Assembly (NCBI RefSeq): GCF_044647545.1
Contig: NZ_CP172818.1
From: Escherichia coli
GTDB taxonomy: Bacteria > Pseudomonadota > Gammaproteobacteria > Enterobacterales > Enterobacteriaceae
DNA length: 64,000 bases
Reading direction: 5' to 3' (one strand)
Shown: piece by piece, positions 28,926 to 32,937 of the stretch
How the letters are laid out: each line of letters opens with the position of its first letter
Numbering within the stretch: the stretch's first letter is position 1
Made by a program: the position numbers and the translations under genes
The notes under the pieces: model-generated
Told to the model about the DNA's origin: nothing
Seen by the model: only the letters and a program-made list of their open reading frames with translations
Database searches by the model: none

Positions 28926-29667
28926 TAAACAAGCCATTGCAGCGGCATTTGGTCGGGCAGCCGCGCACTATGAGCAACATGCGGATCTACAGCGCCAGAG
29001 TGCTGACGTCTTACTGGCAATGCTCCCACAGCGTAAATACACCCACGTACTGGATGCGGGTTGTGGACCTGGCTGGATGAGCCGCCACTGGCGTGAACGT
29101 CACGCGCAGGTGACGGCGTTAGATCTCTCGCCGCCAATGCTTGTTCAGGCACGCCAGAAGGATGCCGCAGACCATTATCTGGCGGGAGATATCGAATCCC
29201 TGCCGTTAGCGACTGCAACCTTCGATCTTGCATGGAGCAATCTCGCGGTGCAGTGGTGCGGTAATTTATCCACGGCACTTCGCGAGCTGTATCGCGTGGT
29301 GCGCCCCGGAGGCGTGGTCGCGTTTACCACGCTGGTGCAGGGATCGCTCCCTGAATTACATCAGGCGTGGCAGGCGGTGGACGAGCGCCCGCATGCTAAT
29401 CGCTCTTTACCGCCAGATGAAATCGAACAGTCGCTGAACGGCCTGCATTATCAACATCATATTCAGCCCATCACGCTGTGGTTTGATGATGCGCTCAGTG
29501 CCATGCGTTCGCTGAAAGGCATCGGTGCCACGCATCTTCATGAAGGGCGCGACCCGCGGATATTAACGCGTTCGCAGTTGCAGCGATTGCAACTGGCCTG
29601 GCCACAAAAACAGGGGCGATATCCTCTGACGTATCATCTTTTTTTGGGAGTGATTGCTCGTGAGTAA
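28912..29667 (+). CDS. bioC: malonyl-ACP O-methyltransferase
   Basis: Start chosen at [14 protein letters not shown] (251 aa); SAM-MTase motif LDAGCGPG; overlaps the bioF 3' end. Confidence 0.93.
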
Positions 29668-30337
29668 ACGTTATTTTGTCACCGGAACGGATACCGAAGT
29701 GGGGAAAACCGTCGCCAGTTGTGCACTTTTACAAGCCGCAAAGGCAGCAGGCTACCGGACGGCAGGTTACAAACCGGTGGCCTCTGGCAGCGAAAAGACC
29801 CCGAAAGGCTTACGTAATAGTGACGCGCTGGCGTTACAGCGCAACAGTAGCCTGCAGCTGGATTACGCAACGGTAAATCCTTACACCTTCGCAGAACCCA
29901 CCTCGCCGCACATCATCAGCGCGCAAGAGGGCAGGCCGATAGAAGCATTGGTAATGAGCGCCGGATTACGCGCGCTTGAACAACAGGCTGACTGGGTGTT
30001 AGTGGAAGGCGCTGGCGGCTGGTTTACGCCGCTTTCTGACACTTTCACTTTTGCGGATTGGGTAACACAGGAACAACTGCCGGTGATACTGGTAGTTGGT
30101 GTGAAACTCGGCTGTATTAATCACGCGATGTTGACGGCACAGGCAATACTACACGCCGGACTGACTCTGGCGGGTTGGGTGGCGAACGATGTCACGCCTC
30201 CGGGAAAACGTCACGCTGAATATATGACCACGCTCACCCGCATGATTCCCGCTCCGCTGCTGGGCGAAATTCCCTGGCTTGCAGAAAATCCAGAAAATGC
30301 GGCAACCGGAAAGTACATCAATCTTGCCTTAATGTAG
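29660..30337 (+). CDS. bioD: dethiobiotin synthetase
   Basis: GTG start at 29660 gives (M)[16 protein letters not shown] (P-loop); overlaps bioC stop; 225 aa. Confidence 0.9.
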
Positions 30338-30348
30338 TCATCCTGTAC

Positions 30349-30400
30349 TTGGTTAAATTGCGAGCGAGATCGCGTCTTCGATTGACTGCAATTTAACCAA
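30349..30400 (+). other. long inverted repeat downstream of bioD (possible operon terminator structure)
   Basis: 13-nt arms ttggttaaattgc / gcaatttaaccaa separated by 26 nt; no clear T-run, so terminator function is uncertain. Confidence 0.4.
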
Positions 30401-30496
30401 TTAAATTCTAAAAAAATCACGAAAAAAATTTTACCTCCGCATCATGCGGTGAATGTGGGAATTGCCCAGGCGGCGGGGGATAGGGGCTGCAGACAG

Positions 30497-30519
30497 TTAT
30501 CCACTATTCCTGTGGATAA
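30497..30519. promoter_or_regulatory. inverted pair of DnaA-box-like sequences upstream of uvrB
   Basis: ttatccact ... gtggataa (TTATCCACA-like boxes in inverted orientation) about 400 nt upstream of uvrB ATG. Confidence 0.55.
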
Positions 30520-30821
30520 CCATGTGTATTAGAGTTAGAAAACACGAGGCAAGCGAGAGAATACGCGGCTTGCACGCGAATTGGCGTTAAAGACGGCTCA
30601 AAGAAATATCTTTTATTTTTTAACTGGTTAGATAATTGCAATGGCAGTCACTGAAGAGGCATCTCTTGCCATAAAACTGTCATCACTCATCTTGACAAAT
30701 GTTAAAAAAGCCGTTGCTTTGGGGATAACCCGGTAAGGCCGGAGTTTTATCTCGCCACAGAGTAAATTTTGCTCATGATTGACAGCTGAGTTTACGCTGT
30801 AACAGAAATATTATGGTGAGA

Positions 30822-30841
30822 AACTGTTTTTTTATCCAGTA
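30822..30841 (+). promoter_or_regulatory. LexA (SOS) box of uvrB overlapping promoter
   Basis: aaCTGTttttttatCCAGta (CTGT-N8-CCAG) immediately followed by TATAAT; about 75 nt upstream of uvrB ATG. Confidence 0.8.
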
Positions 30842-30915
30842 TAATTTGTTGGCATAATTAAGTACGACGAGTAAAATTACATACCTGCCCGCCCAACTCC
30901 TTCAGGTAGCGACTC

Positions 30916-32937
30916 ATGAGTAAACCGTTCAAACTGAATTCCGCTTTTAAACCTTCTGGCGATCAGCCAGAGGCGATTCGACGTCTCGAAGAGGGGCTGG
31001 AAGATGGCCTGGCGCACCAGACGTTACTTGGCGTGACTGGCTCCGGGAAAACCTTCACCATTGCCAATGTCATTGCTGACCTTCAGCGCCCTACCATGGT
31101 ACTTGCGCCCAACAAAACGCTGGCGGCCCAGCTGTATGGCGAAATGAAAGAGTTCTTCCCGGAAAACGCGGTGGAGTATTTCGTCTCCTACTACGACTAT
31201 TATCAGCCGGAAGCCTATGTACCGAGTTCCGACACCTTCATTGAGAAAGATGCCTCGGTAAACGAACATATCGAGCAGATGCGTTTGTCCGCCACCAAAG
31301 CGATGCTGGAGCGGCGTGATGTGGTTGTGGTGGCATCGGTTTCCGCGATTTATGGTCTGGGCGATCCTGATTTATATCTCAAGATGATGCTCCATCTTAC
31401 GGTCGGTATGATTATCGATCAGCGCGCGATCCTGCGTCGACTGGCGGAGCTGCAATACGCTCGTAATGATCAAGCCTTCCAGCGCGGTACTTTCCGCGTT
31501 CGTGGGGAGGTGATTGACATCTTCCCGGCAGAATCGGATGACATTGCACTTCGCGTGGAACTGTTTGACGAGGAAGTGGAACGATTGTCGTTATTTGATC
31601 CGCTCACCGGGCAGATTGTTTCCACTATTCCACGTTTTACCATCTACCCGAAAACGCACTACGTCACACCGCGCGAGCGCATTGTGCAGGCGATGGAAGA
31701 AATTAAAGAAGAACTGGCTGCCAGACGCAAGGTGCTGTTGGAAAACAACAAACTGCTGGAAGAGCAGCGGCTGACCCAGCGTACCCAGTTTGATCTGGAG
31801 ATGATGAACGAGCTGGGCTACTGTTCGGGGATTGAAAACTACTCGCGCTTCCTCTCCGGTCGTGGACCGGGTGAGCCACCGCCGACGCTGTTTGATTACC
31901 TGCCTGCCGATGGGCTGCTGGTGGTCGATGAATCTCACGTTACCATTCCGCAAATTGGCGGCATGTATCGCGGTGACCGGGCGCGTAAAGAGACGCTGGT
32001 GGAGTACGGCTTCCGCCTGCCATCAGCGCTGGATAACCGTCCGCTGAAATTTGAAGAGTTCGAAGCATTAGCGCCGCAAACCATCTATGTTTCGGCGACG
32101 CCGGGTAATTACGAGCTGGAAAAATCCGGCGGCGATGTGGTGGATCAGGTGGTGCGTCCAACAGGCTTACTTGACCCGATTATTGAAGTGCGTCCGGTAG
32201 CGACACAGGTCGATGATCTTCTATCGGAGATTCGTCAGCGAGCGGCAATTAACGAACGCGTACTGGTTACAACTCTGACCAAGCGGATGGCGGAAGATCT
32301 CACTGAATATCTCGAAGAACACGGTGAGCGCGTGCGTTATCTTCACTCAGATATCGACACCGTCGAACGTATGGAGATTATCCGCGACTTGCGTCTGGGT
32401 GAGTTCGACGTATTGGTAGGGATCAACTTACTGCGCGAAGGTCTGGATATGCCGGAAGTGTCGCTGGTGGCGATCCTCGACGCTGACAAAGAAGGCTTCC
32501 TGCGTTCCGAACGTTCGTTGATCCAGACCATTGGTCGTGCGGCACGTAACGTTAACGGTAAAGCGATTCTCTACGGCGATAAGATCACCCCATCAATGGC
32601 GAAAGCGATTGGCGAAACCGAACGTCGCCGCGAGAAACAGCAGAAGTACAACGAGGAACACGGCATTACGCCGCAAGGCTTGAACAAGAAAGTGGTCGAT
32701 ATCCTGGCGCTGGGGCAGAACATTGCCAAAACCAAAGCGAAGGGCAGAGGAAAATCGCGCCCGATTGTTGAGCCAGATAATGTGCCGATGGATATGTCGC
32801 CTAAAGCGTTGCAGCAGAAGATCCATGAACTGGAAGGGTTGATGATGCAACACGCGCAGAATCTGGAGTTCGAAGAAGCGGCGCAAATTCGTGACCAGTT
32901 GCATCAGCTGCGTGAGCTGTTTATTGCCGCGTCGTGA
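30916..32937 (+). CDS. uvrB: excinuclease ABC subunit B
   Basis: 673-aa ORF with Walker A GVTGSGKT, helicase motifs and C-terminal UvrB-UvrC interaction helix; LexA box upstream. Confidence 0.98.

Follow-up and report, generated by a model that had tools for sequence, protein, structure and literature searches.

The bioD-uvrB intergenic region of Escherichia coli carries the sequences of two characterised control modules, DARS1 and an SOS operator

The closest described system to the region between bioD and uvrB is DnaA-reactivating sequence 1 (DARS1). In Escherichia coli K-12, DARS1 maps to 17.5 min, between bioD and uvrB (Fujimitsu 2009, as cited in PMC5742627 and PMC6868365). It lies upstream of uvrB (PMC11317965), and its three boxes are also those of the uvrBp3 promoter (PMC6015884). 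The DARS core consists of three DnaA boxes with equal spacing in DARS1 and DARS2 (PMC6868365; PMC5742627; PMC11724364); box I is oriented opposite to boxes II and III, boxes I and II are 5 bp apart, and box II of DARS1 has the complete consensus (PMC6868365; PMC5742627). On the head-to-head pair of DARS1, the release of ADP depends on Gln208, and apo-DnaA then leaves and binds ATP (PMC6868365). In vitro, DARS1 works without a protein cofactor, and its release of ADP is boosted by a flank of about 50 bp (PMC5742627; PMC11724364). Loss of DARS1 results in fewer origins per mass, larger cells, and a fitness that is lower both in culture and in the gut of mice (PMC4585315; PMC12371093). ATP-DnaA gives a strong DNase I footprint on DARS1 (PMC6015884), and a DnaA ChIP-seq peak was annotated as uvrB (DARS1), with a double DnaA box given as cTAATACACAtggTTATCCACAg, which corresponds to boxes III and II (PMC11317965).

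The second system described for this region is the control of uvrB transcription, which is exerted by both LexA and DnaA (PMC6015884; van den Berg 1985 as cited). LexA-box1 was placed between the -35 and -10 elements of uvrBp2, and its footprint and a TG-to-GC mutant have been published (PMC6015884). DnaA represses uvrBp3 and also the whole promoter cluster, and a TG-to-CA mutation of box 6, which is box II of DARS1, resulted in a 5.9-fold derepression of uvrBp3 (PMC6015884). DnaA footprinting, box mutation, reporter fusions, and promoter mapping for uvrB and DARS1 are all in print (PMC6015884 among them). The LexA/DnaA/P1-P2-P3 system of uvrB and DARS1 is already known, and our analysis adds nothing new to it; the near-invariance of the DARS1 core, spacer, and flank, attached to uvrB through Enterobacterales and Aeromonas, is where the comparative result described below possibly adds value.

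The window analysed here is the whole stretch of 64 kb. It contains bioD, encoding dethiobiotin synthetase (29654-30337, plus strand), and the uvrB coding sequence (30916-32937, plus strand), both identified as ORFs and from the K-12 annotation. The ORF coordinates, with the bioD stop at 30337 and the uvrB ATG at 30916, delimit the same 578-nt intergenic region that the first-pass annotation had described. The arrangement of bioD and uvrB is the same in the K-12 annotation, and bioD is the 5' neighbour of the region in Escherichia. When the intergenic region was compared with that of K-12, 13 of the 578 positions differed (97.7% identity). All 13 differences lie outside the LexA box, the DnaA boxes, and the flank of DARS1, and the interval 30491-30635 is free of substitutions; the nucleotide exchange, footprints, and reporter effects cited in this report were published for this identical K-12 sequence. 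As a query, the 578 nt matched E. coli FDAARGOS_497 with 100% identity, and 5424 of 5426 complete E. coli genomes carry the region at 95% identity or more, each in a single copy. One of the 5424, E. coli ZH063, has a prophage inside the bioD-uvrB region, directly 3' of a sequence ending in CATAAAACTGTCAT (window equivalent about 30683). The insertion point is at 2846/2847 of the fetched ZH063 locus, with a terminase gene close by, and the prophage splits DARS1 from the P2 and P1 promoters of uvrB. An Rfam search of 30000-31200 with E values up to 1 returned no RNA family match, and so no known riboswitch or sRNA is present there. A 45-aa ORF that spans DARS1 (30453-30590) was rejected as a gene; its conservation is that of DNA-level invariance at every codon position.

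DnaA boxes in the window were scored against TTWTNCACA. Box I, TTATCCACT (30497-30505, plus strand), has one mismatch and is DnaA-box7 of Wurihan 2018, and box II, TTATCCACA (30511-30519, minus strand), fits the consensus perfectly, stands head-to-head with box I, and is DnaA-box6 of the same work. This pair had been noticed in the first-pass annotation, which overlooked the third box, TAATACACA (plus strand TGTGTATTA; 30523-30531, minus strand); box III has one mismatch and lies head-to-tail with box II, 3 bp off. The inverted-repeat search returned the pair as a GTTATCCAC-N7-GTGGATAAC palindrome at 30496-30520 with arms that are 100% complementary. The layout is thus box I (+), 5 bp, box II (-), 3 bp, box III (-), with offsets of 0, +14, and +26. 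Box II is the sole occurrence of the perfect TTATCCACA in the 64-kb window, and the three-box geometry with four or fewer total mismatches was found only once in the window; none of 100 dinucleotide-preserving shuffles yielded it with fewer than five mismatches. The window shows the sequence features that define a DARS core, namely three 9-mer boxes, with box I in the reverse orientation to the other two, and a 5-bp spacing between boxes I and II, together with the bioD-uvrB location, the K-12 identity, and the complete-consensus box II that define DARS1. On these features of the DNA, the head-to-head pair and the third box are identified as the core of DARS1. The 'regulatory' flank of about 50 bp (30532-30580), delimited from the literature and from conservation, is identical to that of K-12 and includes the islands TAGAAAAC and GCGAGAG..ACGCGGCTT. 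A hairpin of the form GCAAGC...GCTTGC at 30549-30575 was considered and rejected: it folds no better than shuffles (z = -1.3), and its conservation looks sequence-specific and not covarying.

Compared with DARS1 of K-12, the element has the same locus, the three core boxes, the 5-bp and 3-bp spacers, the perfect box II, and the flank of about 50 bp, and the element itself shows no difference. DARS2, which lies in the K-12 rppH-mutH region 5' of mutH, has boxes at the same offsets of 0, +14, and +26 (positions 2636, 2650, and 2662 of the fetched locus) and in the same orientations. Boxes I and II of DARS2 have one mismatch each, whereas box II of DARS1 is perfect. The two elements also differ in their cofactors, since DARS2 activity requires IHF and Fis, whereas E. 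coli DARS1 is independent of protein activators (PMC5742627; PMC11724364). The DnaA-repressed promoters of dnaA, mioC, nrdA, and purH have a double box with 3-bp spacing like boxes II and III of DARS1, an arrangement predictive of DnaA binding in vivo (PMC11317965). In contrast, the head-to-head box I at 5-bp spacing is specific to DARS and is absent from these ordinary double-box operators.

To follow these elements outside E. coli, uvrB upstream regions from 80 species of Enterobacterales and Aeromonas were fetched by means of UvrB residues 1-150. A DARS core was found 330-545 nt 5' of the uvrB ATG, on the same strand, in all 80 species, and box I was present in 80/80. The total number of mismatches in the core was two in 73 loci and three in the other seven (n = 80). 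Including its spacers, the core is almost invariant across the 80 species (TTATCCACYATTCCTGTGGATAACC), which implies constraints on the spacers 30506-30510 and 30520-30522 beyond the 9-mer consensus. The Aeromonas equivalent of spacer 30506-30510 reads GAAAC, GAATC, or GATTC. In some genera only, bioD is the immediate neighbour of the region; in many genera, the gene for an ABC-transporter ATPase intervenes between bioD and DARS1, as in Enterobacter cloacae, where it occupies 327-1049 of the fetched locus. The DARS-like core of Aeromonas is separated from uvrB by a tRNA-Asn gene (about 1593-1668 of the fetched loci). The core is kept whatever gene is upstream, indicating that the element tracks uvrB and not bioD. 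The conservation profile has its main blocks at the core, at the flank as far as about 30575, and at the LexA box; in 74 of the 80 species, a CTG-N10-CAG sequence lies no more than 200 nt from the uvrB ATG, and no such box was found within this distance in Aeromonas. A further island, TTGACAAATGTTAAAAA (30692-30708, plus strand), is strongly conserved in Enterobacteriaceae and Erwiniaceae only; it is not conserved in Yersiniaceae or Morganellaceae, and no -10 element was found at a suitable spacing from it.

Two further elements were found at constant distances from the core. The first is a second DnaA-like box, TTATCCCCA (plus strand TGGGGATAA; 30720-30728, minus strand), which 72 of the 80 species have at a distance of 222-228 bp from box I, the mode being 223 (42 species). 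The sequence between box I and this box is mostly unconserved, and its distance to the LexA box varies from 54 to 196 bp. It probably corresponds to one of those that Wurihan 2018 called 'potential DnaA-boxes 2-4'. The centre of the K-12 DARS1 ChIP-seq peak at 813,331 (PMC11317965) maps to window position 30721, on the TGGGGATAA box and not on the core. This peak centre is displaced downstream of the core by about 200 bp, and DnaA occupancy in vivo may therefore extend past the three core boxes. The other element is a candidate IHF site, TTTTAACTGGTTA (30618-30630, plus strand), at +121 from box I, which in E. coli has two mismatches to the 13-mer WATCAANNNNTTR. At exactly +121, WATCAANNNNTTR was found with one mismatch or none in 52 of 72 species, 26 of them perfect, and has an A/T-rich 5' flank; in Escherichia and Citrobacter the sequence at +121 has one to three mismatches, and Aeromonas has an IHF-like site at +120. 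A conserved TAAAAKCAA follows 3' of the candidate site, at 30633-30645.

The wider layout of DARS2 is similar, with IHF sites at +93 and +109 and a DnaA box at +211, against the IHF-like site at +121 and the DnaA-like box at about +223 in the DARS1 family. An IHF site for DARS1 is undescribed in the literature that we compared, which treats the core and flank only; an earlier description is possible in Fujimitsu 2009, which lay outside the comparison. The IHF ChIP supplements of PMC8407004 contain no mention of bioD or uvrB. The IHF-like site and the second box in fixed register with the core may be new. We tentatively raise the possibility, which we hold to be less probable than not by a clear measure, that DARS1 is more than the 101-bp core plus flank delimited in E. 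coli, and that the E. coli element is a degenerate form of a larger conserved module of about 235 bp consisting of the core, an IHF site at +121 (perhaps doubled at +139), and a DnaA box at 222-228 bp. Such a module would follow the same logic of core, bend, and DnaA box as DARS2 and datA. The loss of the IHF core match in Escherichia and Citrobacter is in keeping with reports that DARS1 of E. coli is independent of IHF.

The LexA (SOS) box AACTGTTTTTTTATCCAGTA (30822-30841) is letter-identical to the published uvrB box (PMC6015884). It is a CTG-N10-CAG palindrome lying over core promoter elements, between GTGAGA and TATAAT, as in a LexA-repressed promoter, and it overlaps the TATAAT (30840-30845) by two bases, so that the fusion of LexA box and -10 element reported in the first-pass annotation was confirmed. 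The comparison with the described P1/P2/P3 cluster revealed no difference: an identical LexA box lies inside P2, and P3 lies over the DnaA boxes (PMC6015884). The P2 promoter-like element (30816-30845, plus strand) consists of GTGAGA, an 18-bp spacer, and TATAAT. A further promoter-like element at 30849-30877 on the plus strand, with TTGGCA, a 17-bp spacer, and TAAAAT (10/12 match), is likely P1, as judged from the published promoter order. The uvrB promoter cluster with its LexA box was reportedly described by Sancar in 1982. The main uvrB promoters are about 80 nt or less from the ATG, and the main 5' UTRs are tens of nucleotides long (about 30-70). Describing the region as a long uvrB leader, as had been done before, is thus misleading, since the P2 and P1 promoter-like elements at 30816-30877 give short main 5' UTRs; the weak P3 over DARS1 is the sole promoter that would yield a long leader, of roughly 400 nt.

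The long-armed inverted repeat after the bioD stop was also recovered (30346-30403, plus strand), with 16-nt arms at 30346-30361 and 30388-30403 that are 94% complementary and separated by 26 nt. As RNA, it was predicted to fold into a 14-bp stem (-26.8 kcal/mol, z = -2.8). It does not have the form of an intrinsic terminator: its AT-rich stem leads into TTAAATTCTAAAAAAA without a T-run, and the terminator scan missed it. E. coli, E. albertii, and a divergent Escherichia share the repeat, and the hairpins after bioD in other genera are unrelated to it. The E. albertii version shows G-U-type changes. The centre of the repeat, GCGAGCnAGATCTCG, is common to Citrobacter, which is without the long arms. 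The repeat probably forms a stem-loop at the 3' end of the bio operon transcript. Membership in a repeat family was considered and rejected, as E. coli genomes have one copy of the region and the repeat is not kept beyond Escherichia. No link between this inverted repeat and uvrB control was found.

From the K-12 identity, the geometry, the uniqueness in the window, and the conservation observed here, we conclude with high confidence that the bioD-uvrB region contains two separate, already characterised control modules, DARS1 and an SOS operator, and no sequence feature was found that contradicts this explanation. In the first module, DARS1 at about 30490-30580, three boxes are followed by the stimulatory flank of about 50 bp. 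By the published mechanism, ADP-DnaA would bind to box II and draw further protomers to boxes I and III, and the AAA+ head-to-head contact between the protomers on boxes I and II would expel ADP. Apo-DnaA would then depart and rebind ATP, yielding more initiation-competent ATP-DnaA. DnaA on the same boxes would also repress the overlapping weak uvrBp3. The second module, the SOS operator at 30822-30841, lies about 320 bp downstream, inside P2 and beside P1; LexA would bind this operator tightly, and UV damage would lift the repression.

The first-pass annotation had proposed that uvrB is wired both to the SOS response and, through DnaA, to replication initiation. Dual control of uvrB is indeed published (PMC6015884), but the proposal omits the chief documented function of the boxes, that of the DARS1 core on DnaA itself. 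Because the DARS core is found upstream of uvrB in 80/80 species, whatever the upstream gene, the wiring of uvrB to DnaA is only part of the story. The boxes are not simply an operator for DnaA on uvrB; they make up the core of a non-coding element that promotes the release of ADP from ADP-DnaA, and with it the regeneration of ATP-DnaA and replication initiation (PMC11317965; PMC6868365; PMC5742627). The boxes could conversely be thought of as chiefly an operator that ties uvrB transcription to the status of replication initiation, with DnaA reactivation being incidental. The DnaA repression of uvrBp3 and of the full cluster (PMC6015884) agrees with such a role, and so do the linkage of the core to uvrB in all 80 species despite differing upstream genes and the position of DARS2, which is likewise 5' of a repair gene, mutH. 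We nevertheless regard it as unlikely. The three-box geometry is common to DARS2 and is needed for ADP release, not just for binding (PMC6868365; PMC5742627; PMC11724364), and the spacer and the flank of about 50 bp are conserved far past the needs of a repressor site. Whereas the internal spacing of DARS1 is fixed, the interval from the second box to LexA/P2 is the variable one given above. The uvrBp3 fragment (-567 to -280) alone provides only about 20% of the activity of the cluster on a plasmid (PMC6015884), and the phenotypes of the DARS1 deletion are replication phenotypes (PMC4585315; PMC12371093). A purely transcriptional role is part of the truth, but it accounts neither for the geometry that DARS1 and DARS2 have in common, nor for the invariant spacer and flank, nor for the replication phenotypes of the deletion.

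The 9-bp perfect inverted repeat formed by boxes I and II could also act as RNA, in the form of a terminator or attenuator hairpin for bio read-through or for the P3 leader. A simple scan flagged 30496-30520 as terminator-like, and the fold is stable (-16.3 kcal/mol, z = -3.6). However, the tail CATGTGTATT is poor as a U-tract, no Rfam match was obtained, and the arms and loop are invariant in the 80 species without compensatory changes, which is the signature of a DNA-protein site. In Aeromonas, the loop and the extent of the stem differ, and both arms are still DnaA-box matches (box I with one mismatch). Together with the direct DnaA footprint and ChIP data (PMC6015884; PMC11317965), these observations make an RNA hairpin very improbable, and we assign the terminator-like match at 30496-30520 to the DnaA-box palindrome. 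Another terminator-like match, at 30730-30742, was dismissed, as it is not conserved outside Escherichia. DnaA-box-like words may arise by chance in AT-rich intergenic DNA, and one-mismatch DnaA boxes are indeed frequent, with 26 in the window versus about 11 expected. The sole perfect box in 64 kb, the occurrence of the triple geometry in 0 of 100 shuffles, and the conservation in 80/80 species reduce the probability of a chance origin to almost nothing.

With DARS1 and the SOS operator as the two modules of the bioD-uvrB region, one of a small number of chromosomal sites that govern how much ATP-DnaA is present, and hence when replication initiates, is physically merged with a repair promoter under SOS control. 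If the module of about 235 bp is true, IHF would regulate DARS1 in most Enterobacterales, the IHF-like site being found also in Aeromonas. Its confirmation would suggest that DARS1 was ancestrally an IHF-shaped nucleoprotein complex, like DARS2 and datA.
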